From positions 96,001 to 160,000 of the forward strand of contig CAWJGT010000023.1 in NCBI GenBank assembly GCA_963842525.1: 64,000 nucleotides of DNA, given 5' to 3'. Shown piece after piece: positions 3 to 39,413 of this stretch. Below the pieces are notes generated by a model that was not told where the DNA came from, did not search any database, and saw only the letters and a program-made list of their open reading frames with translations. Source of the stretch: an uncultured Holophagales bacterium. Lineage in GTDB: Bacteria; Acidobacteriota; Thermoanaerobaculia; Multivoradales; UBA5704. How positions within the stretch are numbered: position 1 is the stretch's first letter; each line of letters begins with the position of its first letter. The position numbers and the translations under genes were made by a program.

Positions 3-764
3 CTCGCCCACGCCCTTCCGGTGCTCTCCCGCTGGGGGATTCCCGCCACCGTCTTCGTGGTGACCGGCTGCTGCGGCGCCCCCGCGGAGAGCGAGCTGCC
101 GTGGTTTGCCTTCGTCGAAGCGGCGTTCCGGCTGACCCGCCGCACGGAGGTGGACCTCGGCTTCTGGGGTGATCCGCCCCAACCGGTCGCGGACCCTGCG
201 AGCCGCAATCGCGCTCTGAAGCACGTCTCGGAGAAGCTGAAGCTCGCCTCCGAAGAAAACCGCCGGCGCTGGCACGACCAGGTGTTGGCGGCGCTGGAGG
301 TGTCACCCGAGGAGATCCGCGCCTGGGCCGCGACCCAGGAGGAGAGGTTCCGCATGCTGACCTGGGAAGAGATCGGGCAGCTCCTGGACGCCGGCATCGA
401 GATCGGGTCCCACACCCGTTTGCACCGGACCCTGAGCCGGCTGGCGCCGCGCGACCTGGAGGACGAGATCGCCGGCGCCCGCGACGACCTCCGCTCCCGG
501 CTCGGTCTCGAGGAGATCGCCTTCGCCTATCCGTACGGCGGGGCGGAGCACGTCGGCACCGTGGCTCCCGAGGTGGCGCGCCGGGTCGGATACACCTGCG
601 CCCTCTCCACGATCCCGGGCCGCAACACGCCGTCCACGGACCGCTTTCTGCTCCACCGGGTCGACGTGCGGGCGTTCGCGAGCCTTACGGCTGAGTCACC
701 GCGGCAAGGCGGCGACAGTTTCGCGGAAAATGCCGAGCAGGCGGTCGACGACGTAGCCAGGTGA
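3..764 (+). CDS. Polysaccharide deacetylase (NodB/CE4 family), probably 5'-truncated by the window edge
   Basis: Motifs IPATVFV, MLTWEEI, EIGSHTRLH, FAYPYG. The frame is open back to the window start. The 3' end overlaps the convergent GT gene by ~69 bp. Confidence 0.85.
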   Translation, partial: LAHALPVLSRWGIPATVFVVTGCCGAPAESELPWFAFVEAAFRLTRRTEVDLGFWGDPPQPVADPASRNRALKHVSEKLKLASEENRRRWHDQVLAALEVSPEEIRAWAATQEERFRMLTWEEIGQLLDAGIEIGSHTRLHRTLSRLAPRDLEDEIAGARDDLRSRLGLEEIAFAYPYGGAEHVGTVAPEVARRVGYTCALSTIPGRNTPSTDRFLLHRVDVRAFASLTAESPRQGGDSFAENAEQAVDDVAR

Positions 765-1790
765 AAACTCTTCGCGCTCGGCGTTCTCCCGCGCCCCCTG
801 CGCGAAGCGCTCCCGCGCCCGCGGCTCCCGCATGCTCCGGATCGCCTCCGCCCAGGCCTGGGGATTGAGGTAGTCGGAGATCACCAAACCTCCGGTGCCG
901 ACCATCTCCGGCAGCCCGCCGCGTTCGCTGACCAGTGCCGGAATCCCGCTCCACTGGGCTTCGAGGACCACCCGGCCGGCGGCCTCCTCCACGATGGAGG
1001 GGACGAGGAGGAGCCAGCCCTGCTGGTAGACCTGCCGGATGTCGGCGACCCGCGGCAGAAAGCGGACATTGGGCAGGCCTTCCAGGGCTGCACGGACGGC
1101 CGGGAGGTCGTCGTTGAGCGGCCAGCTCTCGACGAGCAGGAAGCGCTCCTCCGGAAGCAGGCGCGCGATGCCGAGAAAGGTTTCGAAACCCTTGAGCGGA
1201 TGCGGATTGATCATGAGGATGGAGCCGTCGGGACTGGGCTCGACCCGGTATTCCTCGGCCGGCACCAGGGGGTAGAGGACCTCCGGCAGGACCCCGGACC
1301 TCTCCTCCACCCAGCGCGCGATGTAGCGCGAGCAGGCGAGGAGCCGGCCGCCGGCAGCGGCCACCGCCTGGACCCCTTCCGATTTGAAGCGGACGTCCTG
1401 GACCAAGCAGACGGTCGGGACGCCGTGGGCCTGGCCCAGGCGCGCGATGGGCACTGGATCGGCGCTCGTGGTGAAGATCACCGACGGCGCGAAGCCCGCG
1501 AAGGCCGACTCCAGGGCCGGATCGATGGCGTCGACGATCCAGATGGGGTAGCCGCAGTCGAAATACCAGCGGTCTCCTTCGTCGCGGAACTCGCGGACGC
1601 CCAGCGTCGCGAAGTCGGCCCGCTTGGGGAAGTACTCGGGACGGGGCGTTCCGATGGCCGACCTGGGAACGATCGTCCGGCACTCGACCCCCCGCTCGAG
1701 GAGGAGCCGGAGCAGCGTATGGACGACGCGGTGCCCCCCGGCGAGGCCCAGGGGGTAGGCCGTGAAGGTGTCCGTGTAGAGGAGCCTCAC
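696..1790 (-). CDS. Glycosyltransferase family 4 (GT-B)
   Basis: GTG start overlaps the upstream stop (GTGA). Motifs AGGHRVV, NPHPLKG and PSIVEEAAGRVVLEAQWSGIPALVSERGGLPE (E-x7-E). Confidence 0.88.
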   Translation of the reverse strand: MRLLYTDTFTAYPLGLAGGHRVVHTLLRLLLERGVECRTIVPRSAIGTPRPEYFPKRADFATLGVREFRDEGDRWYFDCGYPIWIVDAIDPALESAFAGFAPSVIFTTSADPVPIARLGQAHGVPTVCLVQDVRFKSEGVQAVAAAGGRLLACSRYIARWVEERSGVLPEVLYPLVPAEEYRVEPSPDGSILMINPHPLKGFETFLGIARLLPEERFLLVESWPLNDDLPAVRAALEGLPNVRFLPRVADIRQVYQQGWLLLVPSIVEEAAGRVVLEAQWSGIPALVSERGGLPEMVGTGGLVISDYLNPQAWAEAIRSMREPRARERFAQGARENAEREEFSPGYVVDRLLGIFRETVAALPR

Positions 1791-2893
1791 CCGGCGTTCC
1801 CTCCTCCCGCCAGCCAGGAGATCCACCGCGCGTGGGGGTCTCCGGTCGCCAGCGACTCTTCCCGCTCCATCCGCCCGTCCCGCCAGACGGCGGCGGCGAG
1901 CCGGGTATCCCCCTGCGGCTGCTCGGCGCCGATCTGGACGACCTCGCGATCCTCGGACAGCCGGGTGAGCTGCTCCTCCAGGCCGCGGCGGAGCTCCGGG
2001 GTGAGCTGGGTGGTCAGGTAGGTGTGCACCACGCACAGCAGGGTGTCGGAGCGCAGGTCGGCGCAGCAGCGGGCCAGGTCGCGGCACACATCGGCCCGCA
2101 CCACGGGCCAGGGCGCGCGGCGCGCCAGCTCGACCGCGGCGCGGAAACGGGCGATGCGGTCGGGGTGATCGGCCCAGAGAAGGGCGGTGAGCCAGCGCAC
2201 CTCGTCGGGGCTCTCCAGGTTGGGTGGATCGAGCTCCAGGCCCAGCCGTTCGGCGATCGCCGGCGCCTGGGCTCCCCGCTGGCGGGGGATCGTGCCCTCC
2301 CGCACCTCGCAGCGCAGCCGCACCGGCGACGCCGTGTCCCCCGCCCACAGATCGCCGTCCGGAAGGACGAGCTGCATGGCGTACCGGTCCCAACAGAGAT
2401 TGAGACCCGCGCTGGCGCCGATCTCCACCAGGCTAACCGGCTGCGCGCCGTAGCGCAGCCCGAGCCACTCCAGCCCCAGGCGGATATAGACCGAGCGGCC
2501 GACCTCGTTGGTCTGGACGCTGCGGGACTCGACGAGCGGCTGGATCGTCTCCGCGTGCTCGGCGCAAAAGTCGCGGAAGAGGGGGAACGGATCCTCCTCT
2601 GGCGGCCGGCCCGCGGCCAGGTCCGCGTAGACGGCGGAGAGCGGATGGGAGACGCCGCGGAGGATCAGGTCGTGGACCGCCGCGAGCAGCATGAGAGCCG
2701 GGGACTGCCCCGGCCGGGAGCGGGCGGCGAGCCCGAGCAGGAACGGATCGCGGGCCGCCCCGGCGCTCAGCGCGCGGTAGAGCGGCGCGTGGCGGAAGAG
2801 CGCAAGGCTGGCCTCCTCGAAGACCAGCGCGGTCTCTTCCAGGTTCCGGCGCGGGCCGGAGGGGGGGGTGGGAGAGGCGGCGGGCCCGCTCAT
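1787..2893 (-). CDS. DUF2332 family protein (possible SAM-methyltransferase-like fold)
   Basis: Motifs VQTNEVGRS, LVEIGASAGLNL.WDRY, LLWADHPDR and a C-terminal DPHARWISW. Confidence 0.8.
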   Translation of the reverse strand: MSGPAASPTPPSGPRRNLEETALVFEEASLALFRHAPLYRALSAGAARDPFLLGLAARSRPGQSPALMLLAAVHDLILRGVSHPLSAVYADLAAGRPPEEDPFPLFRDFCAEHAETIQPLVESRSVQTNEVGRSVYIRLGLEWLGLRYGAQPVSLVEIGASAGLNLCWDRYAMQLVLPDGDLWAGDTASPVRLRCEVREGTIPRQRGAQAPAIAERLGLELDPPNLESPDEVRWLTALLWADHPDRIARFRAAVELARRAPWPVVRADVCRDLARCCADLRSDTLLCVVHTYLTTQLTPELRRGLEEQLTRLSEDREVVQIGAEQPQGDTRLAAAVWRDGRMEREESLATGDPHARWISWLAGGGNAG

Positions 2894-2895
2894 CC

Positions 2896-4863
2896 TCAGA
2901 GCCCGGGCGCCGTGAGGTCGGCCTCCAGCTCGGTGCCGCGGAGCAGGGCGCCGAGCTCGGAGAAGTTGGCGATCAGGTCCCGCAGGTCCTGGGAGATCTG
3001 CTTGCGGGTCGACTCCCGCAGCGTCACTTCCGGCGTCACGGACAGGAAGTGGAGCAGGCGCAGGCGCTCCTCCTCGGTGGTCAGCTTCTCGTAGGTCAGC
3101 TCCAGCCAGCTCTGGCCCATGGAGCGCAGGGCGTTGCAGATCCGGCTGTAATAGGTCTCGTTGAGCTCGATGTGCCGGCGCAGCGCCGCGAGGTCCACGT
3201 CGACGGAGGGCTTCTCCTCGCTCAGCGGGATCCCCGGATAGCTCTCCCACTCCCCCGTCCGCTCGGCGATGACCTCGGAGACGTAGGTCTTGATCCGGTT
3301 GCGGCGGCGGATGACGATCTTGCGGACGTCCGGATCGGCCAGCACCGCGCGGAAGACCGCTTCGTTCTGCCCGCGGTTGAGCTTGAAGCCGACGGCCCGA
3401 TAGCCGGAGCAGGCATCCCAGACCCGGTCGAGGAAGCCGAGCGGATCGCGGTTGCGCTGCTCCAGCGTCCCCAGGTCCAGCTTGCCGCGGCAGGAAAGCG
3501 AATAAAGAATCCGCTCCGGGTTGAAGATCTCGTGGTGGCAGAGGATCTCCGGGTGGGAGTCGAGCAGCGTGCAGAGCCAGTTGCTGCCGGTCCGCGGCGC
3601 GGCAAGGACCACGAAACGCAGCAGGCCCTGGAAGTCCCGCTTGCGGGACAGGACCGGCCCGATCTCCTCCTCGGTCAGCAGGTGCTCCATCTTCTCCCGC
3701 TTGGTCTGCATGTAGAAGGAGCTCTCCGGCGAGGCGGAGACGACCAGCGGCACGCGCTCGACCACGCGCACCCCCCCGTCCTCCAGGCTCCGGATCTTCT
3801 TGGGGTTGTTGGTGAGGAGGCGGATCTCGCGCACTCCCAGGTCGCGCAGGATCTGGCCGGCGATGCCGTAGTCGCGCAGGTCGGGAGGGAACCCCAGCCG
3901 CTCATTGGCCTCGACCGTGTCGAGCCCCTGCTCCTGGAGCGTGTAGGTCTTGAGCTTGTTGTAGAGACCGATCCCCCGCCCCTCCTGCCGCAGGTAGAGC
4001 AGCACCCCGTGGCCGGACTCGGCGATCCGCTGCAGGGCGAGGTCGAGCTGGGGGCCGCAGTCGCAGCGTAGCGACCCCAGGGCATCGCCGGTGAGGCACT
4101 CGGAGTGGATGCGGGTCAGCACCGGGGTGCCGTTCCCCACCTCGCCCCGCACCAGGACCATGTGCTGCAGGCCGGTCAGGGGCTCTTCGTAGGCCAGCGC
4201 GCTGAAGACCCCGTAGCGGGTAGGCAGGCGCGCCGGCGCCGGCAGGCGCACCAGCTTGCCATGGGCCTGCCGGCGGCAGTGGTCGATCAGGCGGGTCATG
4301 CCGACCACTTTCAGGTGGTGCCGGCCGGCGAATTCGTCGACCGGATGCAGGGAGAGCTTGCAGACGAGGCCCATCGGCCGGAGCCCGGCCAGGCGGGCCA
4401 GGTCGAGCACCGCCTCGACCGGGGTTGGACAGACCAGGATGCCGCCCCACGCCGCCCGCAGCGGGACGATCCCCTCCGGCATCAGGACCTCCTCGCCCGC
4501 GGCGAGCTGGATCAGGTGCTGGAGGGCCACCGCGTGCTGCGCCGCGACCCGGGCCAGGACATCATCCCCATCCTCCTCCGGGGAGACCGGCCCTGCGGCC
4601 GGGGAGAACGGCGCGGCGCTCTGATCGAAGGGCACCGGGATGATGCCCAGGGTGTCGAGGCGCTCGGGGGTCATGGCGAGCCCGAGGACTCCCGGACCGT
4701 GGCGCAGCAGGAAGGCGAGGCTCTCGGCCGACGCCTTCTCGGCCGCGGCGAGCAGATAGCCCTCCGCGGTGTGCTCCTCGTCGCGGACGAGGACGATCTC
4801 CCGCCCGTTGCGGAAATCGGCCAGCGCTTCTTCGATCGGTGCAAGTCTCATGGTCAACCTCAT
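2896..4863 (-). CDS. Fusion: degenerate DHBP synthase (RibB-like) + GTP cyclohydrolase II (RibA/ToxB-like) + Stf0-like sulfotransferase
   Basis: RibA motifs RIHSECLTGD..RCDC, RQEGRGIG, DLRDY and LLTNNPKK are intact. The N-terminal RibB fold has altered catalytic motifs. The C-terminal domain has PAPS motifs APRTGSN and RRRN. Single 655 aa frame. Confidence 0.85.
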   Translation of the reverse strand: MRLTMRLAPIEEALADFRNGREIVLVRDEEHTAEGYLLAAAEKASAESLAFLLRHGPGVLGLAMTPERLDTLGIIPVPFDQSAAPFSPAAGPVSPEEDGDDVLARVAAQHAVALQHLIQLAAGEEVLMPEGIVPLRAAWGGILVCPTPVEAVLDLARLAGLRPMGLVCKLSLHPVDEFAGRHHLKVVGMTRLIDHCRRQAHGKLVRLPAPARLPTRYGVFSALAYEEPLTGLQHMVLVRGEVGNGTPVLTRIHSECLTGDALGSLRCDCGPQLDLALQRIAESGHGVLLYLRQEGRGIGLYNKLKTYTLQEQGLDTVEANERLGFPPDLRDYGIAGQILRDLGVREIRLLTNNPKKIRSLEDGGVRVVERVPLVVSASPESSFYMQTKREKMEHLLTEEEIGPVLSRKRDFQGLLRFVVLAAPRTGSNWLCTLLDSHPEILCHHEIFNPERILYSLSCRGKLDLGTLEQRNRDPLGFLDRVWDACSGYRAVGFKLNRGQNEAVFRAVLADPDVRKIVIRRRNRIKTYVSEVIAERTGEWESYPGIPLSEEKPSVDVDLAALRRHIELNETYYSRICNALRSMGQSWLELTYEKLTTEEERLRLLHFLSVTPEVTLRESTRKQISQDLRDLIANFSELGALLRGTELEADLTAPGL

Positions 4864-4905: not shown

Positions 4906-6741
4906 TCAGGCCACCTTGCGGTCGTCGACCCGCTGCTGCATCGCCCGTGCGACCTGGACCACGGACAGGTCACCGGGCGCGACCAGGTAGGCGCCGCCGT
5001 CGTAGGAGGTCGCCACCACGTGATCGCCGCTGCGCGCGAGCGAGCTGATGCCGTTGCCCGCGATCTCCCGGCGCGTCACCTTGCCGCTGGCGAGCTCGAC
5101 GCGGATCACCGTCCCCCAGTAATCGCCGACCACGACCGTGTCCTCGTCCCAGAAGCAGAGCGACTTGAGCGAGCGGCGGCCGAGGGGGATCGAGTGCAGG
5201 AGCTTGCCGTTGTCGAGCTGGAAGACCTTGACCGTGAAGTCGCGCGAGACGCTGGCGAGCCGTTCGCCGCTCGGGTCGAGATCGACGTCGTTGATGATGG
5301 CCGTGTGGCCGAGGTAGCTCTCCAGGAGCTCGCCCTCGAAGCTCCAGCCGAGCAGCAGGCCGTCGGCGCCGCAGCTCACGCCCATCGTCTTCGCCGGGTG
5401 CAGGCGTAGCGACTTGACGGCGCCCTCGTGGACGTGGATCTTGCCGCGCACCTGGCCGTCGGGGCCAACGCGCACGATGGCGCTGCTGTAGCAGCCGACG
5501 AACGACTCGCGCTCGTAGCCCGGGTGATGGGCGATGCGGATGGTGTTGATCGGCCCTTCGCCGAGGAAGACCTCGATGCCGTCGCGCAGGTTGCCGTCCG
5601 CCAGGCGGTAGATGTGGATCTTGTTGTCGTGCGCGCCGCCGACCACCATGCCGTACTCCTCGTCGAGGGTCACGGCGTTCATCAGCATGCGGCCCGAGGC
5701 AGGCTCGATGCGGGCGCTCCAGGAGGCCTCGTCCGGGGTGAGCCGGCCGAGGCGGATGTAGCCGTCGTCGCTCACCAGGGCGACCGTGCCGCCGGAGGAC
5801 GCCGAGGCCTCGTTGAAGCAGGCGTTGCCCGGCTCCTCGTCGATCCGGCCCACTTCCCGCGAAAGCCGGCCCGAGGCGGCATCCCAGACCAGGACCGTGC
5901 CGTCGAAGGTGCCGGCCACGATCTGCGAGCCGTCCGGGGTCCAGCTCAGCGAGCGCTCCCAGACCGAGGGGACGCGCTCCAGGCGGAGCTTTTCTTCGAA
6001 GGTCTCGCCGTCCCAGACGATCAGCTTGCGGTCGTAGGCCGCCGACAGGACGTCCCCCGTGGCCGGCGACACCGTAACTTTCTTGATGCCGGAGGTGTGG
6101 GCAGGGATCTCGCGGACGAGGTCGCCGGTGCCGGTGTCGAAGATGCGGATCGCGCCGTCGTCGCAGCCGAGGATGGCGCGGCCGTGCACCGGGTCGATGG
6201 CGCAGGTGTCGGTCTCGTTCTCGAACGGCCCCCAGACGCTCAGCAGCTCGCCGGTGTCGAGGTCCCAGACCCGCAGCGTCTTGTCGTCGCCCGAGGAGTA
6301 GATCCGGCCGTCCTGGTAGGCGAGCGACAGGACGTCCTTCTCGTGGCCTTCGAGGATGCGGAGGATGGCGCCCGTATTGAGGTCCCAGACGAGCACGCGG
6401 TGGTCGCGCGACGCCGAGACGCCGACCGAGTCGCCGGCAAAGACGAAGTCCTCAACGTCGTCGCTGTGCCCGCGCAGCACACGCAGGGGCCGGCCGGTCT
6501 CCAGGTCCCAGATGCAGGTGGTGTAGTCCGACGAGCAGGAGGCGGCCCGGCGGCCGGACGGATCGACGATCAGGCGGTTGACGAGGTGGCGGTGATAGCC
6601 CAGGAGCTCGACCTCCCCGGTCTTCAGATCGAACCGGGCGACTGCCCCGTCATAGGCCGAGGTCACGGCCTTGTCGGTCCCCGGGACGGCGGCCACACCG
6701 GTGACGGGCCCCCGGTGGCGCAGGAAGCTCAGCGAAACCAT
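4906..6741 (-). CDS. WD40-repeat double beta-propeller protein resembling toxoflavin biosynthesis ToxC
   Basis: Many GH..WD repeats. The N-terminal pattern H.GP..G.AA..TSAYD..H.HLVN..SSDY..GHSDDVE..ASRDHRV matches my recollection of ToxC. Strong RBS (AAAGGAG). Start overlaps the PKS-NRPS stop. Confidence 0.8.
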   Translation of the reverse strand: MVSLSFLRHRGPVTGVAAVPGTDKAVTSAYDGAVARFDLKTGEVELLGYHRHLVNRLIVDPSGRRAASCSSDYTTCIWDLETGRPLRVLRGHSDDVEDFVFAGDSVGVSASRDHRVLVWDLNTGAILRILEGHEKDVLSLAYQDGRIYSSGDDKTLRVWDLDTGELLSVWGPFENETDTCAIDPVHGRAILGCDDGAIRIFDTGTGDLVREIPAHTSGIKKVTVSPATGDVLSAAYDRKLIVWDGETFEEKLRLERVPSVWERSLSWTPDGSQIVAGTFDGTVLVWDAASGRLSREVGRIDEEPGNACFNEASASSGGTVALVSDDGYIRLGRLTPDEASWSARIEPASGRMLMNAVTLDEEYGMVVGGAHDNKIHIYRLADGNLRDGIEVFLGEGPINTIRIAHHPGYERESFVGCYSSAIVRVGPDGQVRGKIHVHEGAVKSLRLHPAKTMGVSCGADGLLLGWSFEGELLESYLGHTAIINDVDLDPSGERLASVSRDFTVKVFQLDNGKLLHSIPLGRRSLKSLCFWDEDTVVVGDYWGTVIRVELASGKVTRREIAGNGISSLARSGDHVVATSYDGGAYLVAPGDLSVVQVARAMQQRVDDRKVA

Positions 6742-9700
6742 CTCTGTTCTCCTTTCTGGATCTCGGAACGAACTTGTTGTCCGCCGCCGGGTGCGAGCAG
6801 GGACCGCAGGGCCTCCCGGCCGTGCTCGGCGAGCTTTTCGATCGTGCTCTGGCGGTGGCAGCTCTCGCTGTAGGTCCAGTCGATCTGCAGCCGGCCGTCG
6901 ACGACCGCGGCGGAGACGTAGACCAGGGCGGGCCGGGTGGTCGACGGATCGGCGAAGGCCCCGAGCGACCCGGCAGACACGCGCAGCAGCGAGTCCGGCC
7001 GCGGCGGCCGGATTCCCTGGTTGCCCCGGTAGTTGAAATGGACCTCGGCCGCGGGAAGCCGGCGTATCGCCGCCGCGATCTCCGGATGGCGGCTCAGGTA
7101 GCGCAGGACGCCATAGCCGAGGCCTTCGCGGGGGACTCTCCGGAGCTGCGCCGCCACCCCCCGCAGGCGCTCGGTGGGGTCGTCCGCCTCGGGCAGCTCC
7201 AGGACGACCGGATGGTCGATGGCGAACCAGCCGATGGTGCGCGTGACGTCGAGGTCCGCGAAGACCGGGTGCCGACCGTGGCCGACGAGACTGAGGAGCT
7301 GCACGGGGCTCCCGGTCCAGCGGGCGAGCGCGTCTGCGATCCCGGTCGCGAGCACCTCCTCGGCGGTGACGCCCAGCTCCCGCGGCAGTTCACGGAGGAG
7401 GGCCTCGGTCTCCCCGGCATTGAAGGCGGTCGACACGGCGCGGCGGGAGCGGGCGGTGTTGTGGCCGCCGGGATGGTCCAGCGGCAGGCGGACGGTGCGC
7501 TCCCAGGGGAGCCCCAGCCACCAGTCCGCCTCCGCCTCGGCTTCGGGCGAGCCGGCCCAGGCCGTGAGCCGCTCGGACCAGGTTTTGAACGAGACGAGCC
7601 GGGGAGGGACGCGGACCTCCTCGCCCGGCCCGCGCTGGACGAGCTGGCGGTAGATCGCCTCCAGGTCCTCGGCGAGGAGGCGGACCGAAACGTGATCGAG
7701 CGACAGGTGGTGTCCCACGAAAAGGAGGCGGTCCGGCACACCGGCGCCGAGCTCGAAGGCGACCAGCCGGAAGAGCGGCCCCTGCGAGAGGTGGAGGCTC
7801 TGCTGCACCTTCGCCGCTGCGGCTTCGACCACCCCCCGCAGACGGCCTCCGACAGGCAGCCCGGAGAGGTCGATCGTGGAGAACGGCATCTCCCCGTCCG
7901 GCTCGGCGGCGACCTGCCGCCACCCCTCCCCCTCTCGGTTATCGCGGAAGAAGCGGAGGCGCAGCGCCTCGTGATAGTTGACCAGGTGCCGCAGAGCCGC
8001 AGCGAGGCGCGCCTTGTCGAGGGGATGATCGAGGAGCTCGTCGACCTCGCAGAGCAGGCTCACGTTCCAGTGGTGCGGGTTGACGAACGGCCGCTGGAAG
8101 AACCAGTGCTGGTTGGGGGTGAGCGGGATCGGGCCGGTCTCCGGGGGCGGCGCGGCGGCGAGCGGCGCGCTCCCCTCGGCGACCGCCGCGAGGTCCCCCA
8201 GGCGGGGGTGCGCGAAGACCTGCCGCAGCTCCAAGGAGAGGCCGCGTTGGCGCGCCTTGCCGAGAAGGCGGATGGCGAGCAGTGAGTCGCCGCCCAGGGC
8301 GAAGAAGTGGTCGTCGCGCCCGATCTCCCGCACGCCGAGGAGGTCCGCCCAGACCTCCGCGAGGGCGATCTCCGCGGGAGTCTGCGGCAGGGCGAGCGCC
8401 GCCGGCCGGCGCAGGCCCTCCCCCTCGGGCCGCGGCAGGGCCTTGCGGTCCACCTTGCCATTGGGTGTCTTCGGCAGGGCGTCCAGGACGACGAAGGCGC
8501 CCGGCACCAGGGCCGCGGGCAGGCGGCCTTGGAGGAAGCCCCGGAGCTGGTCAGGATCAGGCGCGCTCCCCTCCTCCGCCGGCCGCACGGCGACATAGCC
8601 GACCAGGCGCTCGGCCGGTCCGTCATCCGTTCCGCTCCAGGCCACGACCGCGGCCTCGCGAATTCCAGGATGACCGAGCAGGGCGCTCTCGATCTCGCCG
8701 GGCTCGACCCGGATGCCGCGCAGCTTGATCTGCCGGTCGATCCGGCCGAGGATCTCGAGGGTGCCGTCGGGCCGGCGGCGGGCGAGGTCGCCGGTGCGGT
8801 ACATCCTCTCCCCCGGCCGGCCGCTCAGCGGATCGGGCCGGAAGGCCGCGGCCGTCAGGTCCGGGCGGCCGAGGTAGCCGCGGGTCAGCCCGGCGCCCGC
8901 GATCCAGAGCTCGCCGGCCACGCCGAGGGGCATCGGCGCGAGGTCCCGGTCCAGGACATGAAGGCGGACGTTCGCGATCGGCCGCCCTGCCGGGACGGTG
9001 CCGGTGCTGGCGTCCGCGTCCGTGAGCCGGTGGACGGTCGTGGTCAGCGTGCTCTCGGTCGGGCCGTACTGGTTGACGACCTGGACCGCGGGAGAGAAGA
9101 CCCGGCGTGCCCGCTCGCGGGTCGCGGCAGGGAGAGGCTCGCCGCTCGCCAGCACGAGCCTCACGGATTCGCCAGGAGGCCCTTCCGCATCGAGCAGCTC
9201 GGCGAGGAGCGTGGGGACCACGCTCGGCAGGCAGGTCACCCCATGCCTCTCGATCGCCCGGCGGAGTACCTGGGGATCGTGGGCCTCATCCTCCTCGACC
9301 AGCACGACCCGGGCGCCAGCCGAGAGCGGCCCGATCAGGTCGCGCAGGGAGGCGTCGAACGACAGCCCCGCGATCTGGAGGGCCACGTCGGACGGTCCCA
9401 GATCCCACTGCCGGAGTAGGTAGCCCAGGTAGTTGACCACCCCGCCATGCCGGCCGCAGATCCCCTTGGGCGCCCCGGTCGAGCCCGAGGTGTGGACCAC
9501 GTAGGCCAGGCCCTCGGGACCGGCGAGCGGAGGGAGATCGGAGCGGTCCTCGCTTGGCCCGTGGTCGAGCAGCTCCTCCCGGGTCAGCACGAGCCGCGGG
9601 CGGGTCGCTTCGAGGATCGCAGCCCGGCGGAGCGGCGGGGTATCCGGAGCGATCGGCACGTAGGCACCACCCGCCTTGAGCACCCCGAGGAGGCCCTCGA

Positions 9701-12700
9701 CCATTTCGAGCGAACGCCCGGCCTCCAGGGCGACTGTCACCTCCAGCCCGACGCCGAGCCGGCGCAGGTGGCGGGCGAGCTGGTCGGCGCGGCCGTTGAG
9801 CTCGGCGTAGGTGACCGACCGGTCGCCGAGCGTCAGGGCGACCGCGTCCGGGGCCTCGGCCGCCCGGGCCTCGAACGGCTCGTGGATCGCACGCGCGGCG
9901 AGGGTCTCCTCGTCCGTATCGTTGGGCTCGTGGACGACCTGGTGCCGCTCGGCCTCGGTGAGGAGCGGGAGGTCGCCGGGGCGCCGGGCAGGGTCTTCGG
10001 TGATCGCCGCAAGAAGCGTCTCGAGCTGGCCAGCCAGGCGCTGCAGCGCGGCCGTGGAGAACCGGTCCGCGTCGCCGATCAGGTGCAGCACGGTCCGGTC
10101 GGCCGGGAAGACCATGAGGGTCAGCGGATAGCCGGTCCGCCCCTCGGAGCGGAAGAGGTCGCGGATCACGGGACCCTCCCCGGCCCCGACCAAGTCCTCT
10201 CCCTGAGGGAGATTTTCGAAAATCACCAGGCTCTCGAAAAGCGCCTGGCCCGACGGCACCTCGCTGTGCTTCTGGACCTCCAGAAGCGGCACGTGCTCGT
10301 GCTCGCGCGCCGCCGACTGCTCGGCCTGGATCTCGTGCAGCCCGTCGAGGAGGGGCGCGTCGCCGCGCAGCCGGACCCGCACCGGCAGGGTGTTGATGAA
10401 CAGGCCAACCATCTGCTCGACGCCCAGGAGGGACGGGGGGCGGCCCGAGACCACGCCGCCGAAGACCACGTCCTCCTCGCCCGAGGTGCGGCCGAGCAGG
10501 AGCGCCCAGGCCCCCTGGAACAGGGTGTTCAAGGTCAGCCGGTGGCGCCGCGACAGCTCGCGGAGCCCTTCCGAGAGCTCCTGGGAGAGCGCACCCTGGA
10601 ACAGCCGGTAACTCCGCCCGGCCTCCTCGGCGGCCGGCCTCTCCGCGGGGAGCGGGGTCGGCGCGGTGAAGCCCGCGAGAGCGCGGCGCCAGAACGCCTC
10701 GTCCTCGGCGCGGCTGTTGGCCTCCAGCCAGGCTACGTAGTCCCGATAGGGCCTGACGTCCGGCAGCTCGATGCGCCGCCCCTGCCGGATCCCGGCGTAG
10801 AGGGTGAAGATCTCGCGGAACACCAGCGGCACGGACCAGCCGTCGAGCAGCAGGTGGTGGTAGCTCCAGACGATCTGGACGGAGTCGCCTCCAAGGTCGA
10901 AGGCCACGAGGCGCATCAGGGGGGCGAGCCGCAGGTCGAAGCCCCGGCGGCGGTCCTCCTCCAGGAAGGCGCGGAGCCGCTCCCGTTGCGCGGCGGGGCC
11001 CAGGGCGCGCCAGTCGACCCGCGTCCAGGGCAGCCCGGTAGTCCGGCGGACGACCTGGAGCGGCTCGTCGAGCCCCTCCCAGAAAAAGGCCGTGCGCAGG
11101 ATCGGATGGCGGGCGATCACCGCGCGCCAGGCCTGATCGAAGGCCTCGGCGTCGAAGCCGCCCTCGACGGTCCAACCCACCTGGAGCACATAGTCGCCGG
11201 AGCGCGGCGCGTAGAGGCTGTGGAACAGCACTCCTTGCTGGACCGGCGCCAGGCGGTAGGTGTCCTCCATGTCATCGAGAGCTACTTCGGCCAGGAGCGT
11301 GGCGAGCCGCTCCCGGTCGAAGACCGCGAGAGGGCGGCTCTCCGCCGGCCGGTCCGGCTCGGAAACCGTTCCCGCTCCCAGAGCCGCCGCGAGCTGCGCG
11401 ACGGTCTGGAATTCGAAGAGCTGGCCGGGGGCGATCTCCAACCCGGCGCGGCGCGCCCGGGCGACGATCTGGATGCCGAGCACCGAATCGCCTCCCAGCT
11501 CGAAGAAGTTGTCGTGGAGGCCGACCTCGGTGACGCCCAGCATCTCCCGCCAGAGCGCGGCGATCCGGCCCTCCAGCTCCGTGCGGGGCGCGGCATACGG
11601 GGTGCTCAGCGCGGGCCGGGCGTGCCGGGCCGCGGAGCCTGTGGGCTCGATGTCCGCAGCGGTTGCCGCCTTGTCGAGCAGGCTCGAGGAGGTCGCCGCC
11701 GCGGCCTCCGCCAAAGCAGCGTTCAGGTCGGTGGGCGAGATCACGACCTGCGGCGGCACCCGGTGCGCCAGCAGGCGGCGGAAGACCTCGATCCCCTCCT
11801 CGGGTGACACGCCCATTTCGAGGACCCGGGCGAAGGGATCGGCGCCGCTCCCCTTCTCCGCCTCGGCGGGTTGGGATTCGAGGGGCGAGCGGGCCCGGAG
11901 CTGCTCGGTCGGGTTGTTGACCCGCTTCTTGCCGTAGCCGCGGATCTCGACGAGCTCGGTGCCGTCCTCGTCCATCAGGACGACGTCGAACGAGATCGTC
12001 TCCTTGCGGGAGTAGTCCCGGTCCTCCAGCAGGCGGGCGTGGCTCCAGAGCTTCCGCGTCAACGGGGCGCGGATCTTCAGGCTGCGGTAGGCGAGCGGCA
12101 GGTAGAAGCCGTCTGTCAGGTCGACCAGGAACTGCTCCCCCAGGCCCGCGGCGCGGTCGAGCAGCGCCGGGTGAAGATGGCAGGCCGCGAGGTCCCCGGC
12201 GAGCAGCGCGGGCAGCTCGAGCGTGCCCAGCACCTCGCCGTCGCCGAGCCAGGCCTGCTGGACGGTCTGCCAGCGCGGGCCGAGGTCCTCGTACTTCTCG
12301 TCCTCGACCGCGGCGAGGACCCGGCCGCGGTCGCAGCGCGCGAGGATCTCCGGCAGGTCGTGCCGCTTCGGGGGCTCCGGAGCGAGCGGGCGCACCCGGC
12401 CGAGCATGGTCTCGTCCCAGGTCCCCGCGCCCGACCGGCAGGCGACCTTGAAGTCGAAGCCGTCCCCCGAGGCTTCGAGCTCCAGACGTACCTCCTTCTC
12501 CTCGTCCTCGCGCAGCCGGACCGGCGTCAGGAAGAAGACGTCGTGCAGCTCGACCGGACCCGGCCCCTGCCGCAGCGCGAACGCCGCGCGGGCCATCTCC
12601 AGGTAAGTCGTGCCCGGGATCACGGGCTGGCCGGCGATGCGGTGCTCGTCGGCCACCCACTGCCGCGCGGCGCTGAAGCGGGTGTGGAAGACGTCCCGCC

Positions 12701-15700
12701 CCGGCTCGGACCGGCGGCGGTCGAACAGGGGGTGCTCGACCGGCTCACCGTCGTCCAGCTCGGCCGGCTCCTCCGCGGGCCGCGCCTGCCCGGCCGCCGC
12801 GGCGAGCATGCCGACCTGCCGCCAGGCGCACCAGTCGATCGCCAGGGTGAACGGGCCGCCGGCCGACCGGCAGGCGTGCGCCCAGGCGTCGAGGAAGGCG
12901 TTGGCCGCGCAGTAATCGGCGCCGCCGGCCTGGCCGAAGAGGGCGCTGCGCGACGAGCAGACCACCAGGAAATCGGGCTCGTCGCCGAGCACCGCCTCCA
13001 GCACGCGCGTCCCCTGGACCTTCGGCGCCAGGACCGCGGCGGCGGCCTCGGCCGAGCGGAGCTGGAGGAAGGCGCCGGTCGAGACGCCCGCGGCATGGAC
13101 GACGCCATCGATCCGCCCGAACCGTTCGCGCGCAGCACCGACCGCCCGGCGCATCTCCTCTTCGGAGGCGACATCGGCTGCGAGGACCAGGACCTCCGCT
13201 CCCAGGTCCTCCAGTCGGGCCACCTGGCGAACTCGCGAGGCCGGCAACCCGGAGCGTCCGAGCAGGACGAGCTTGGCGCGCACCGTGCGGGCCAGGAGCT
13301 CCGCGATCGACAGGCCGATGCCACCGAGCCCGCCGGTGATCAGGTAGCAGCCGCCGGGGCGGAGCCGCGCCAGGTCTCCGGATTCCCCGGCTTCCCCCAG
13401 GCGGACGGGCTCGAAGGTCTGCACCCAGCGGTGGGAGCCGCGCCAGGCCACGACCTGGTCGTTTGAATCGGCGAGCAGCTCCTCGCAGAGGCGCTCGATC
13501 AGGGCAGTCCGCTCGCGCGGGGAGGCGGCCGGCAGAGTGTCAATGCTGCGGCAGCTCACCCCCGGGATCTCCTTGGGGATCACCTTCAGGGGGCCGAGGA
13601 GGGCCGCCTTCTCCGGCCAGAGCAGGTCGCCGCCCACGACCTCCTGCATCTGGCTCGATACAACGTCGATCCGCAGCGGCTCCGGGCTGCCGCGGCGGCC
13701 CAGAGCCTGAGCGAGCGCGATCAGGCTCTTGTAGCCGCGGCGCAGGTGCTCAGCCGCCAGATCCCGCCGCGGGGTCTCCTCCGCGAGGGATGCGCACCCC
13801 AGGTGGACGATGCGCTGGACGCCCGCGGGGAGAGGCTCCACCTCCTCCTGGATAGCGACCTCCTGCCCCAGCTCGGTGAGGCGCTCGGCGAGAGCGTTCC
13901 ATTCACCTCCTCCGAGGAGCAGCCACCTCTGCCGGGGCCTGTGGTCCGTGCCGAGCCGCTCGGCCAGGGCCGAGCGCCGCCAGCTCGGGACGTAGAACCA
14001 GTCCGCGAGGTCCGGCTTCCGCTCCGTGGCGGACAACCCGCGCTCGCTTGGCGCGGGCTCATACCAGTAGCGCTGGCGCTCGAACGGATAGGTCGGCAGC
14101 GGCACGCGCCGGCGCCGCTCGTGAACGGAAAACCCTTTCCAATCGACCGCGGCCCCCGCGAGCCACAGCCGCCCGAGCGTGGTCAGCAACGCGGCCCGCT
14201 CCGAGCCCCCTTCCTTGGGGTGGCGCAGCGAAGAGAGCACCAGCCGGGCGGACGACCGGGCCGGGTGCTGGCGCACCAGGGCCGCCAGCGTCGTGCCAGG
14301 GCCGACCTCCAGGAAGCCCGCGTCCGTCTCCCGGAGCACCCTCTCCACGGCCTCCGAGAAGCGCACGGTCTGCCGCAGGTGCCGCGCCCAGTAGAGCGGG
14401 TCCGTGGCCTCCCCGGCGGTGATCCAGGTGCCCGTGACGTTCGACAGGAAGGGGATCTCCGGCGGCTTGCGCGCCACCCGCCGCACCCGCTCCGCGAAGG
14501 CCGCGAGGACCGGCTCCATCAAGGGCGAATGGAAGGCGTGGGACGTGAGCAGCCGGCGGCAGACCACCGCCTGCGCCGCGAGGTCCCGCTCCACGCGCTC
14601 GATCGCCTCCGGGGTGCCCGAGAGCACGCAGAGCGAGGGCCGGTTGATGGCCGCCAGTGCGAGCTCCGGGGTCTCCGGACCGACCCGGTCGAGGATCTCC
14701 GCCTCCGAGAGGTGCACCGCCAGCATGGCGCCCGGCGGCAGCTCCTGGACGAGGCGCCCGCGGGCCGCCACCAGGTCCAGGGCGTCCTCCAGGGAAAAGA
14801 CGCCGGCCAGGCAGGCGGCCACGTACTCGCCGATCGAATGGCCGATCATTGCCTTGGGAGCCATCCCCCAGGACATCCAGAGCCGGGCCAGCGCGTGCTC
14901 GATCACGAAGAGCGCCGGCTGCGTGAGGAAAGTCTGGTCGAGCCGCTCGCCGCCCGCGAAGATCTCCTGCCGCAGGTCGCACCCCAGGGGCGCCAGGAGC
15001 CGCTCGGCGCAGCGGTCCACCTCGGCGCGGAACACCGGCTCGGATTCGTAGAGCTCCGCCCCATGCCCGCGTGCTGCGCGCCCTGGCCCGGGAACAGGAA
15101 CACCAGGGGCTGCTCCCGCGGCTCGTGAGTGCTGGTGTGGACCCGCGTCGGATCCAAGCTCGCGAGGTTGGCGGCCGCATCGGTGGCGTCGCGGCAGACC
15201 AGGATCCGGCGGTGGCCGAAGGCGCGGCGCCCCGCCTGGAGAGTGAAGCCAATGTCGGCCAGGTCGGCCTCCGGGCTCTCTTCGAGATGGCGGCGCAGAT
15301 TCTCGGTGGCGGACTCCAGGGCCGTCGCGGTCCGCGCCGACAGCACCAGGAGCTGCCAGGGGCGCGAGGGTCCCGAGGGCGCGGGCCGCGGCGCCTCCTC
15401 CAGGACCACGTGGGCGTTGGTGCCGCCGATGCCGAACGAGCTGACGCCCGCGCGCCGCGGGCCGTCCGTGGCCCAGTCGCGCAATTCGGCATTGACATAG
15501 AAGGGGCTGTCCTCGATCCCCAGGTCCGGGTTGGGCCGCTCGAAGTGGAGGCTGGGAGGGATCTGCCGGTGCTCCAGGGCGAGGACCGTCTTGATCAAAC
15601 CGGCGACGCCCGCGGCGGTGTCGAGGTGGCCGAAGTTGGACTTGATCGAGCCGAGGGCGCAGAAGGACCGCTTACCGGTGCGCGCGAAGACCTTGCGCAG

Positions 15701-16680
15701 GGCGGCCACCTCGATCGGGTCTCCCATCGGGGTGCCCGTGCCGTGACCCTCGATGTAGGTAACCTCGTCCGGGCGCACCCCGGCGGCGCGCTGGGCCACC
15801 GCGATCACCTGGGCCTGGGTGTCGACGCGGGGCGCGGTGTAGCCCACCTTGTTGGAGCCGTCGTTGTTGATCGCCGAGCCCAGGATCACGGCGCGCACCG
15901 GATCGCCGTCCGCCAATGCCTCGGAGAGCCGCTTGAGGACAACGACTCCGGCGCCGCTGCCGCCGATCGTCCCCTGGGCGCGGGCATCGAACGGGCGGCA
16001 GTGGCCGTCCGGCGAGGCGATCCCGCCCTCCGTCCAGAGATAGCCGGCGGTCTGCGGCACCTCGACCGCCACGCCGCCGGCCAGGGCCATGTCGCACTGG
16101 TAGTCGAGGAGCGACTGGCAGGCGAGATGGACCGCCACCAGCGAGGTCGAGCAGGTCGTCTGCACCGTCACGGCGGGCCCGCGCAGGTTCAGCTTGTAGG
16201 CCGTCATCGTGGTGAGGTGGTCGGCGCGGTTGCCGATCGCGGCCTGGAGGCTGCCGACCGAGGCGACGAAGCCCGGCGAGCCGAAATTCGCCAGCAGATA
16301 GGTGCTGAGGCCCGTGCCCGCGAACACGCCGATGGCGCCCGGAGGGCGCTCCGGGTCGCAGCCGGCGCTTTCCAGCGCCTCCCAGGCGCATTCGAGGAAG
16401 AGCCGCTGCTGCGGATCGGTGGCGGCGGCGACCCGCGGGGTCATACCGAAGAAGGGGGCGTCGAACAGCTCGATGCCGTCGAGGACCGCGCGCGCCTTGA
16501 CGTAGCGCGGATCGCGCCGGAGCGCCGGCTCGATTCCCGCCCGCTCCAGCTCCTCGTCGGTGAAGAAGCGGATCGACTCGACGCCGTCGCGCAGGTTGCG
16601 CCAGAGCTCGCCCGCGTCGCGGGCGCCGGGGAAGCGGCACGCCAGGCCGAGGACGGCAATGGCCTCGGGCCGCTCGTCGT

Positions 16681-16684
<4 letters not shown>
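6729..16684 (-). CDS. Hybrid PKS-NRPS: KS-AT(malonyl)-KR[DH inserted]-ACP-C-A-T-E-like; 1-bp frameshift at ~15057 joins ORFs 14903..16684 and 6729..15035
   Basis: KS TTCSTSL, HGTGT and GHLDTAAG. AT GHSIG and HAFHS. KR TGGLGGIG and YCAAN. DH EHRIAGQPVIP. ACP GGDSV. C HHLLLDGWS. A TSGSTGAPKG and YGPTE. T GGDSL. Terminal E-like domain with HHLSLDH and TIGWF. No TE. Confidence 0.92.
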
Positions 16685-20717
<4,033 letters not shown>

Positions 20718-20721
<4 letters not shown>

Positions 20722-21791: not shown

Positions 21792-21831
21792 GGTTCGTCA
21801 TCCCCATGCTCCTTATGTGTCCCCAGTCGGC

Positions 21832-34011: not shown

Positions 34012-34015
34012 CACT

Positions 34016-39413
<5,398 letters not shown>

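Follow-up and report, generated by a model that had tools for sequence, protein, structure and literature searches.

The gene on the minus strand at 2896..4863 of the window (the whole 64,000-nucleotide stretch analyzed here, from an uncultured Holophagales bacterium) codes for one predicted polypeptide of 655 amino acids that unites two enzyme families normally found on separate genes, and two of its three domains are predicted to be catalytic. These are a GTP cyclohydrolase II (GCH II) and a PAPS sulfotransferase, which follow a DHBP-synthase-like (DHBPS-like) domain probably retained as a scaffold. We lean slightly toward an overall reading in which this fusion acts within a conserved module that also includes a ToxC-like WD40 protein, and in which a GTP-derived heterocycle bearing a ribityl chain is sulfated; the steps after the opening of GTP are those that we infer.

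The ORF (P0001) is free of stops throughout its three domains. Its ATG at 4863 is preceded by a Shine-Dalgarno-like GAGGGGG, and a second in-frame ATG at 4851 corresponds to the position at which the homologues start. On the minus strand, Pfam and alignments place the DHBPS-like domain at amino acids (aa) 11-194 (4282..4833), and the alignment to PDB 2bz0 together with TIGR00505 places GCH II at aa 208-397 (3673..4242). A linker of aa 398-412 (3628..3672) is delimited by alignment and by an in-frame 6-nt gap in the contigs of relatives, and the match to PDB 9vki and a structure model define a NodH/Stf0-type sulfotransferase domain of aa 413-655 plus the stop codon (2896..3627). Every motif quoted in the initial annotation of this DNA is found in the 655-aa ORF: RDEEHTAEGY (aa 27-36), MPEG (128-131), PTPVE (146-150), Cys256/267/269, D328-x-R330, PRTGSN (423-428), and RRRN (519-522).

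The GCH II domain is, as far as its sequence tells, complete and intact in its catalytic residues. It scores 230.4 bits against GTP_cyclohydro2 (PF00925; aa 211-372; cut-off 23.3) and 250.9 bits against TIGR00505, above the cut-off of 205.85, and it aligns with E. coli RibA (2bz0) with an E-value of 4e-68. In this alignment C256/C267/C269, Y307, D328, and R330 correspond to E. coli C54/C65/C67, Y105, D126, and R128, which bears out the earlier observation that the RibA half keeps its three zinc cysteines and the DxR motif. A canonical ribBA gene of 413 aa is present on contig C9 of the genome (301 bits for DHBP_synthase and 257 bits for GCH II), so that the separate housekeeping copy, of which the fusion had been called a paralogue, does exist.

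The C-terminal domain is predicted, from its sequence and structure model, to be a complete PAPS sulfotransferase of the NodH/Stf0 type. In Pfam the fusion protein reaches 19.3 bits with Sulfotransfer_3, below the cut-off of 27, and has no match to Stf0 (PF09037); in the gathering-score test with Sulfotransfer_3 or Stf0, a stand-alone relative scores 22.3 bits versus 22. The domain matches 9vki, an “LPS sulfotransferase NodH,” over aa 14-241 of its 256 aa (E 6e-20; approximately 30% identity, as estimated by eye). Its model (pLDDT 94.5) matches 34 PDB chains at E<=0.001, the matches listed being sulfotransferases, Stf0 (1tex, TM 0.54/0.56) among them. The PRTGS loop (aa 423-427) and an R520...S529 motif are in place, and across 80 family members R25 and G27 are invariant and S28, R121, and S130 nearly so (domain numbering). 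The genome also encodes an APS kinase. The initial annotation had named this an Stf0-like PAPS domain; the PAPS-type fold and motifs stand, and the affiliation is better given as NodH/Stf0-like, the domain being no clear member of Stf0 proper. The family is large, with 4334 representatives at E<=0.001. A search of 200 other sampled genomes of the same class did not find the domain at E<=1e-20, which leaves close kin uninformative.

Immediately ahead of the fusion, at a distance of 42 nt, is a gene for a 611-aa WD40 protein (4906..6741, minus strand), which alignment and a ToxC HMM assign as a full-length relative of ToxC with no more than 28% identity to ToxC-family proteins. Its aa 6-587 align end to end with positions 11-565 of another WD40 protein (28% identity, E 4e-43) that belongs to a GCHII-WD40-RibD-FGE-glyoxalase-FMN reductase-MT operon and whose close homologues carry the JGI name “toxoflavin biosynthesis protein ToxC”; this operon and this naming are the basis here for regarding ToxC as a WD40 protein. 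Among the best 12 of 20,389 ORFs, it is the sole protein matched by the ToxC HMM as one domain (positions 2-559 of 563). Contig C10 gave a second strong WD40 match, but this 1167-aa protein turned out to be of the generic WD40 kind and not ToxC-like, and an Atlas search with the window protein returned generic WD40 clusters only. ToxC itself was reportedly annotated at first, by Suzuki et al. in 2004, as a WD-repeat protein.

The pairing of a ToxB-type enzyme (GCH II) with a ToxC-family protein is present at the window locus. The window cluster has no ToxE-type RibD (deaminase-reductase), and neither RibD_C nor a deaminase occurs in the window itself, the genome's RibD_C matches, three in all, being on C3, C12, and C34; likewise, the cluster has no ToxD-like gene, and where the genome has FGE-type matches, these are at other places on C23 and C28. 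Three sources (PMC13755311, PMC13684122, bioRxiv 10.1101/2025.05.27.656397) present ToxC as the proposed builder of the triazine ring of toxoflavin, its chemistry (N-N bond and triazine formation) still being described there as “proposed.”

On the other side of the fusion, with its ATG 2 nt past the fusion's stop codon, is a gene for a DUF2332 protein of 368 aa (1787..2893, minus strand), the C-terminal part of which has a class-I SAM-methyltransferase-like fold in its structure model. As for resemblance to a ToxA-type N-methyltransferase, this model gives VIA Z scores of 8-9 to methyltransferase folds (5ufm, at Z 8.1, is tied with many other matches) and no Foldseek match at E<=0.001; a sequence search of the PDB found no match, and a literature search found no publication on DUF2332. 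The next gene encodes a GT4-family glycosyltransferase (696..1865, minus strand; its start is not fixed).

The same constellation recurs when 45 loci with this sulfotransferase family, 44 from genome contigs of many phyla and the window region, are compared. A ToxC-like gene is present in 37/45, GCH II in 28/45, and RibD_C, as the reductase only, in 23/45, while a ToxD-like gene (E<=1e-10, >=50% coverage) is found in 0/45. The fetched stretches, some of them short, have no GCH II in 17/45 loci and no ToxC-like gene in 8/45. Read from gene content, the GCH II/sulfotransferase pair is part of a conserved module, which the ToxC-family WD40 protein completes as third core component, and a literature search found no published description of a GCH II, sulfotransferase, and ToxC-like module. 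The most conserved unknown cassette families of the other loci, c3 and c5, are not found in this genome, and the Thermoanaerobaculia-type version of the module, without them, may work differently. An Atlas search with c3 returned unnamed clusters only, mostly labeled Uroviricota, and a PDB sequence search gave nothing for c3 and only repeat-protein noise for c5; NCBIfam had no useful match for the sulfotransferase domain, the WD40 protein, DUF2332, c3, c5, or c11. A membrane glycoconjugate pathway was considered separately and set aside on the weak evidence that hydrophobic segments are absent from c3 and, in c5, limited to a signal-like one.

The initial annotation had linked the GTP-opening chemistry with sulfation, and this link gains support from the gene neighborhoods of the 45 loci and from members of the same sulfotransferase family that are fused to RibD_C (P0136, P0154) or to a RibD-type deaminase (P0151). 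That annotation had the ring-opened GTP product, or its sugar, as what may be channeled to sulfation. The adjacent ToxC-like gene, which it did not include, suggests that sulfate is instead accepted by an intermediate further along the route, already ring-closed and bearing the ribityl chain. Most likely, the module would convert GTP to a ribityl-bearing N-heterocycle that is sulfated by the sulfotransferase domain. GCH II would first convert GTP to 2,5-diamino-6-ribosylamino-4(3H)-pyrimidinone 5'-phosphate, the side chain of which would be reduced to ribityl, by the cassette RibD_C at other loci and in the window lineage by the housekeeping RibD or by two Zn-dehydrogenases encoded outside the window. 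Dephosphorylation of the intermediate would follow, after which the ToxC-like protein, in the manner proposed for ToxC in toxoflavin synthesis, may build one more N-heterocycle onto the aminopyrimidine by ring closure. As there is no ToxD-like ribityl-cleaving enzyme, the ribityl chain would stay, and the sulfotransferase would move sulfate from PAPS onto a ribityl hydroxyl or onto a sugar added by a cluster glycosyltransferase. Tailoring of the product may then fall to the GT4 enzyme and to DUF2332, the methyltransferase-like protein.

The glycosyltransferases also lend themselves to a different account, which we judge unlikely: the acceptor of the sulfotransferase would be a glycan or a glycolipid, for instance LPS, exopolysaccharide, or a Nod-factor-like molecule, and the enzyme's fusion to GCH II would reflect mere co-regulation in a surface-polysaccharide locus. 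Its closest solved relative, 9vki, is after all labeled an LPS sulfotransferase, members of the family are also fused to GT2 glycosyltransferases (P0121, P0131), and the loci include genes for GT4 (in the window and several others), GT8 (8/45), GINT1_N (11/45), and polysaccharide deacetylase. However, the family is fused to three enzymes of the route from GTP to ribitylaminopyrimidine (GCH II, RibD_C, and deaminase), and the sulfotransferase gene adjoins the ToxC-like gene, within 300 nt and on the same strand, in 25/37 loci; a glycan acceptor by itself leaves the presence of GCH II and RibD_C at so many of the loci unexplained. Were the GTP-derived unit to be glycosylated, the glycan reading and that of a GTP-derived acceptor would become one.

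The setting of the gene agrees with the earlier proposal that it was recruited to secondary metabolism, as it lies at the 3' end of a specialized-metabolism (NRPS-PKS) operon. The last megasynthase gene ahead of the ToxC-like gene is a PKS-NRPS ORF with the order AT-KR-DH-ACP-C-A-PCP (6729..15035, minus strand). The remainder of the operon (14903..39413, minus strand) includes a KS, a C-A-MT-PCP unit, two TauD dioxygenases, a 3-module NRPS, a C-domain protein, and a FAAL-like loading protein with PCP-C-A; the two Zn-dehydrogenase genes are just beyond the window edge. Because the module forms the 3' end of this operon, a lipopeptide may be coupled to its product or be formed alongside it. A stronger version, which we regard as improbable, has the module serving the NRPS-PKS line outright: the lipopeptide would take up the GTP-derived heterocycle as a building block or as its cap, or a carrier-bound amino acid would replace free glycine as the substrate of the ToxC-like protein, and the sulfotransferase would sulfate the assembled hybrid. 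The 13-nt overlap of the ToxC-like gene with the end of the last NRPS-PKS gene and the shared strand of all the genes are consistent with this, as is the recurrence of the order TauD-TauD-NRPS-ToxC-like-fusion in L005, a MAG labeled Thermoanaerobaculaceae. Yet, when 46 loci were clustered, megasynthase-type ORFs (c27) were confined to the window, L005, and L024, and therefore the module elsewhere works without a megasynthase; nor was a step found, by condensation or by a ligase, to couple the two parts.

The DHBPS-like domain has lost the residues that define DHBP synthase. It scores 78.5 bits with the DHBP_synthase Pfam model (aa 11-194) versus the 301 bits of the housekeeping ribBA, relative to which it has an 11-residue deletion, and it reaches 67.6 bits with TIGR00506 (NCBIfam ribB), under the cut-off of 177.45. 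The RibBA equivalog NF006803 gives 394.2 bits against a cut-off of 569, and the remaining NCBIfam RibBA equivalogs are likewise below theirs. Compared with E. coli RibB, the replacements are E38>T, D42>Y, C67>G, H136>G, R150>C, H153>P, T154>V, and E174>K; among these are positions of the acidic loop, Cys67, His136, His153, and Glu174, which we take to be the DHBPS catalytic residues. The RibB half is thus degenerate, in line with the initial annotation, and the loss of activity that was claimed along with this may be deduced from the residues.

What this domain now does could conceivably go beyond a scaffold: it may now bind the phosphoribosyl or ribityl side chain, isomerize it, or act on it like a phosphatase, a new function by which it would replace RibD_C in concert with the Zn-dehydrogenases. 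The distribution of RibD_C, in 0/8 GCH II loci with the degenerate domain versus 17/20 other GCH II loci, and that of the Zn-dehydrogenases c15/c16, in 5/8 of the former, would fit such a role, as would the retention of the degenerate domain across Acidobacteriota, Proteobacteria, and Planctomycetes with invariant (such as G149 and D162) and nearly invariant (E158/A159) columns. Conservation between the lineages is weak, however, with no new common motif in place of the lost ones, and c15/c16 co-occur with RibD_C in L021, L026, and L043. Moreover, the DHBPS domain builds the oligomer in RibBA enzymes. We hold a new function to be quite improbable and the domain to be probably a retained scaffold, which makes it a clean case of a catalytic domain kept after loss of its active site.

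That the sulfotransferase follows RibA in frame, as was claimed at the outset, with no stop or indel to part them, is evident from several lines of data. GC3 is 0.85-0.98 in one phase throughout 2881-4860, which leaves no room for a hidden frameshift. A search of about 5.8 billion clusters retrieved 7 more full-length fusions of 640-667 aa (57-81% identity, 99% coverage). Two studies other than the source supply contigs that bridge the junction at about 92% identity, one from run X1 (window 2806-4074) and one from run X4 (3550-3998); their listed indels within the ORF sum to multiples of three, the linker gap of 6 nt being in frame. Given the single unbroken high-GC3 frame, the independent full-length homologues, and the bridging contigs, the notion that two separate genes were joined by an assembly or frameshift artifact, for which no evidence was found, has a negligible probability.

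These findings connect ToxC relatives and the chemistry of GTP-derived pyrimidines with a large and hitherto unnamed sulfotransferase family. They also point to cultured strains (Pseudoalteromonas, Sphingomonas, Caulobacter, Ferruginivarius) as putative sources of an undescribed group of sulfated natural products and to a second, widespread ToxC subfamily, with other partners, no ToxD, and the ribityl chain probably retained, as an independent system for ToxC chemistry. A bolder and decidedly tentative extension is that the metabolites of the cassette form a new class, sulfated, azapteridine-like (N-N bonded), and still bearing their ribityl chain, and that the cassette has spread by transfer between bacteria of soils and of the sea in at least 5 phyla, having been wired as a whole into lipopeptide assembly in the Thermoanaerobaculia-type lineage, where the fusion would combine the entry and the exit enzyme.

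Parallels can be drawn with three known systems. With the NodH/LPS sulfotransferase (9vki) and Stf0 (1tex), the fusion's domain shares the PAPS-type fold, the PRxGS P-loop-like and R...S motifs, and a size of about 250 aa. The known acceptors of those enzymes are carbohydrate hydroxyls, whereas the family considered here is genomically tied to GCH II, RibD, and ToxC-like genes, not to nod or LPS genes. Bifunctional RibBA, as represented by M. tuberculosis RibA2 (PDB 4i14), has the same two-domain N-terminal layout, aligned over aa 6-396 of the fusion; in contrast, the fusion has every checked DHBPS catalytic position replaced and a loop deleted, adds the sulfotransferase as a third domain, and sits in a secondary-metabolite operon. 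Plant RIBA2 and RIBA3, RibBA paralogues with one inactive half, offer a precedent for such inactivation after duplication.

The third parallel is with the toxoflavin operon toxABCDE of Burkholderia glumae and Pseudomonas protegens, in which a dedicated GCH II (ToxB) is encoded beside a ToxC-family WD40 protein, as at the fusion locus. Like the route proposed for the module, toxoflavin synthesis begins with GTP and has a ribityl-aminopyrimidine among its intermediates, and the tox operon has a methyltransferase-like tailoring gene, of which DUF2332 would be the counterpart by fold only. Beyond this, the two systems differ: the ToxC-like protein is a distant relative, the GCH II carries a dead DHBPS domain, the window has no cluster-encoded deaminase, and the module loci have no gene of the ToxD (FGE-sulfatase) type. 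Conversely, the sulfotransferase, absent from tox clusters, is a core member here.

The fusion occupies a single open frame of 655 codons (window 2896-4863 (-)), and because GC3 stays at 0.85-0.98 in one phase across window 2881-4860, a single coding frame runs through the entire stretch, uninterrupted where the junction was proposed. A search of ~5.8 billion protein clusters recovered seven more full-length homologues (P0002-P0008; 640-667 aa, 57-81% identity, 99% query coverage); the next relatives, P0009 (419 aa) and P0010 (405 aa), end after the GTP cyclohydrolase II (GCH II) domain but have the same degenerate N-terminal domain as the fusion. The junction between GCH II and the sulfotransferase (ST) domain is also bridged at ~92% identity by contigs from two different studies (run X1 record 1, window 2806-4074; run X4 record 25, window 3550-3998), which belong to relatives rather than to the source sample. 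Both carry an in-frame 6-nt gap at 3670, within the linker (aa 398-412), and of the other indels listed, those inside the ORF add up to multiples of three. Together, the ORF, the continuous GC3 phase, the homologues, and the bridging contigs bear out the in-frame joining of RibA and ST proposed in the initial annotation, all of whose quoted motifs lie where it had placed them. In Pfam, the match to DHBP_synthase is weak (78.5 bits, aa 11-194), that to GTP_cyclohydro2 strong (230.4 bits, aa 211-372), and that to Sulfotransfer_3 below threshold (19.3 bits; cut-off, 27). The first 400 residues fall under all NCBIfam RibBA equivalog cut-offs, the best score being 394 bits where 569 are required; of the single-domain models, ribA exceeds its cut-off of 205.85 with 250.9 bits, and ribB, at 67.6 bits, falls short of 177.45.

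In the N-terminal DHBPS-like domain, alignment to Escherichia coli RibB (1iez/1g57) reveals eight replacements (E38>T, D42>Y, C67>G, H136>G, R150>C, H153>P, T154>V, and E174>K) at positions that we take, from the DHBPS literature, to be catalytic or metal ligands. The degeneracy of the RibB motifs originally noted is thus real. The canonical motifs are kept in the housekeeping RibBA of the same genome, relative to which the fusion also lacks 11 residues from the loop after the motifs. That 413-aa protein, encoded on contig C9 (DHBP_synthase, 301.4 bits; GCH II, 256.6 bits), establishes the fusion as a paralogue of a separate ribBA, as had been surmised; no third DHBP_synthase or GCH II match was found in the genome. 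RibD (deaminase plus reductase) and APS kinase are encoded on contigs C3 and C24, respectively. The DHBPS-like domain attached to GCH II is degenerate in all cassette cases that were aligned (loci L017, L022, L024, L025, and L041, plus the fusions), with Pfam scores of 86 bits in L022 and 45 bits in L025, and is most simply viewed as a retained oligomerisation scaffold. A RibD_C reductase was present in the fetched stretch of none of the 8 loci with a degenerate DHBPS-GCH II protein (L005, L006, L017, L022, L024, L025, L041, and the window), compared with 17 of the remaining 20 loci with GCH II; Zn-dehydrogenases of families c15/c16 occur in five of the eight.

The middle domain aligns to E. 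coli RibA (2bz0; E 4e-68), with C54/C65/C67, Y105, D126, and R128 of the latter corresponding to C256/C267/C269, Y307, D328, and R330 of the fusion; these residues are invariant in a 13-sequence alignment (A1), and the Zn cysteines and catalytic DxR are accordingly intact, as first described. The C-terminal 256 residues matched one solved protein by sequence, the "LPS sulfotransferase NodH" (9vki; E 6e-20, residues 14-241). An AlphaFold2 model built with 80 family members as input (mean pLDDT 94.5) matched 34 PDB chains at E<=0.001 in Foldseek, those listed being PAPS sulfotransferases such as TPST, heparan sulfate 3-OST, Stf0 (1tex; TM 0.54/0.56), and the curacin ST. Across the family, R25 and G27 (domain numbering) are invariant and S28 of the PRTGS loop, R121, and S130 near-invariant, a pattern presumably that of the two PAPS-binding motifs expected in this fold. 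When 1.84 billion representatives were searched exhaustively, 4334 relatives of this domain were found at E<=0.001, of which 126 reached E<=1e-30; the best 150 are mostly stand-alone proteins of ~250 aa. A Pfam scan of ten longer members uncovered RibD_C + ST fusions (P0136, P0154), a fusion of ST to a dCMP/RibD-type deaminase (P0151), and proteins combining GT2 with several ST domains (P0121, P0131); the other five gave ST matches alone. The fusions with GCH II, RibD_C, and the deaminase indicate that the ST family has been joined, in separate lineages, to three successive types of enzyme on the route from GTP to ribitylaminopyrimidine. A sample of 200 other genomes from the class of the source organism contained no match to the domain at E<=1e-20, which is consistent with acquisition by transfer.

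Immediately upstream lies a gene for a 611-aa WD40 protein (4906-6741 (-)), whose affinities emerged from the cassette of a Pseudoalteromonas (L028). When the WD40 protein of that locus was searched against 400 sampled genomes of its class, one orthologue was found (in G215, 53% identity), along with weaker matches including one in genome G271. The latter belongs to an operon (L072, G271:C18:4000-20000, 6502-12966) encoding GCH II, the WD40 protein (576 aa), a RibD deaminase-reductase, FGE-sulfatase-like and YycE/glyoxalase-like proteins, an FMN reductase, and a methyltransferase. This gene content is as reported for toxoflavin clusters, with ToxB as GCH II, ToxE as deaminase-reductase, and ToxA as methyltransferase in PMC13755311 and PMC13684122; PMC5851621 mentions the glyoxalase ToxM and a kinase annotation for ToxD. 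L072 is a complete toxoflavin-type operon in a genome of the Pseudoalteromonas class; the identical protein in NCBI carries a Gammaproteobacteria MAG label. Relatives that JGI calls "toxoflavin biosynthesis protein ToxC" (P0293, P0298, P0331, P0335, P0382) share 49-51% identity with the G271 protein over 96-98% of its length, and two members of the family (P0274, P0278; 892-894 aa) have a fused FGE-sulfatase domain (PF03781) and look like natural ToxC-ToxD-type fusions. A single colinear alignment covers aa 6-587 of the window protein and aa 11-565 of the G271 protein (28% identity, 150 bits, E 4e-43); an ordinary WD40 protein gave only repeated local matches, nearly all within the first ~330 residues. 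An HMM of 118 relatives of the G271 protein (563 positions) was run on the 20,389 stop-to-stop ORFs of >=200 aa in the source genome. Among the 12 best-scoring ORFs, the window protein was the only full-length single-domain match (positions 2-559, domain score 217.9), the best domains of the other eleven being confined to positions ~4-170 with scores <=107.5. On these sequence criteria the window protein is ToxC-like, the relationship being a distant one.

A scan for the ST domain with one genome per species gave 45 loci spanning Acidobacteriota, Gamma- and Alphaproteobacteria, Planctomycetota, Gemmatimonadota, Cyanobacteria, "Entotheonella," and others. Gene presence was scored by local tblastn with representatives (E<=1e-10, >=50% query coverage) in 44 of these (L047 was dropped on coverage) plus the window region; the counts are floors because several loci are short. 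Apart from ST (45/45, by construction), the most frequent members are the ToxC-like WD40 protein (37/45), the unnamed family c3 (29), GCH II (28), and the RibD_C reductase (23), followed by the unnamed family c5 (14), methyltransferase (12), GINT1_N (11), GT8 (8), c15 and c16 (7 each), and a PLP decarboxylase (6). With the same thresholds and short loci included, no ToxD-like FGE-sulfatase was found in any of the 45. In 25 of the 37 loci with a ToxC-like gene, ST lies <=300 nt from it on the same strand. The Pseudoalteromonas order is GCHII-RibD_C fusion, c3, WD40, and ST, with overlapping ends. GCH II itself occurs alone, fused to RibD_C (L028, L012), or with the N-terminal DHBPS-like domain. 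In Caulobacter sp. BP25 (L038, genome G003), the sole PF00925 match genome-wide is a divergently transcribed gene beside the cassette, and one enzyme may supply the cassette as well as riboflavin synthesis. Family c3 (L028:6692-8155 and relatives) comprises soluble proteins of ~490 aa encoded between GCHII-RibD_C and the ToxC-like gene; it has no Pfam, NCBIfam, or PDB match, and its nearest Atlas clusters are for the most part labelled Uroviricota. Family c5 has a signal-peptide-like N-terminus. Neither of these conserved members was found in the source genome.

In the source lineage, as in L005, the module closes an NRPS(-PKS) operon that includes two TauD genes. All on the minus strand, these genes encode a FAAL-like loading protein with PCP-C-A (34281-39413), a C-domain protein (32254-34119), a three-module NRPS (22908-32300), two TauD dioxygenases, C-A-MT-PCP (16681-20721), KS (14903-16684), and AT-KR-DH-ACP-C-A-PCP (6729-15035), the last overlapping the WD40 gene by 13 nt. 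The KS-plus-linker and AT-KR-DH-ACP-C-A-PCP ORFs share 133 nt, which they read in different frames, and the AT match of the latter starts with profile position 25 at residue 2. Either the PKS module is split naturally or there is a frameshift. Directly upstream of the loading gene is a MacB/FtsX-type ABC transporter (39431-41878 (-)), a likely exporter, and beyond it a pyruvate dehydrogenase E1 gene (42751-45459 (-)). At the downstream end of the operon, a DUF2332 gene (-) has its ATG 2 nt past the stop codon of the fusion and is followed by a GT4 glycosyltransferase (-). Residues 127-355 of the DUF2332 model (pLDDT 80) fall among class-I SAM methyltransferases in VIA-align (Z 8-9), which make up nearly all of the 50 matches listed and include didemethyltoxoflavin N1-methyltransferase (5ufm; Z 8.1, tied with others), but Foldseek gave no match at E<=0.001, and the protein is therefore termed methyltransferase-like only. 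In a Sedimenticolaceae MAG, a homologue with 44% identity (L022:12037-13122) is encoded 1.3 kb downstream of ST; the family is otherwise rare (8/301 genomes of the phylum sample, the source genome included). Just outside the window are two Zn-dehydrogenases homologous to c15/c16 (G000:C23:90367-92510); the stretch before it (G000:C23:82001-96000) also encodes a multicopper oxidase, an ECF sigma factor with a zf-HC2 anti-sigma protein, and a 1037-aa TPR-CHAT protein.

These associations suggest a pathway in which GCH II would convert GTP to the ring-opened diaminopyrimidinone phosphate, and a reductase would then generate the ribityl form, this role falling to RibD_C in most loci and to the housekeeping RibD or the Zn-dehydrogenases in the source genome. 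After dephosphorylation, the ToxC-like protein would build a further ring. With no ToxD, the ribityl chain would remain, and it would most likely be the acceptor of the carbohydrate-type ST domain. As an alternative, the sulfate could be placed on a sugar attached by the glycosyltransferases of the cluster, or a glycan may be the acceptor; NodH being the nearest solved relative of the ST domain, the existence of GT2-ST fusions, and the many glycosyltransferases in the loci speak for the glycan. Since the module stands last in such an operon in the source lineage and in L005, a hybrid product is possible there.

Full-text searches of the mostly open-access literature, main texts only, returned nothing relevant on the combination of GCH II, ToxC-like, and ST proteins. 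Song et al. (Org Lett, 2023) is said to be the primary paper on the proposed ToxC reaction. In PMC13755311 and PMC13684122, ToxC is proposed to combine glycine with dephosphorylated 5-amino-6-ribitylaminouracil to give 1-ribityl-dedimethyltoxoflavin, from which ToxD then takes off the ribityl chain; a preprint (bioRxiv 10.1101/2025.05.27.656397) describes ToxC as "an additional new oxidase family" with a proposed role in forming the N-N bond. The chemistry of ToxC itself is at present a proposal. Set beside the toxoflavin system, the fusion locus probably represents a tox-like GTP-derived pathway, of which the three-domain fusion is the most informative single gene.
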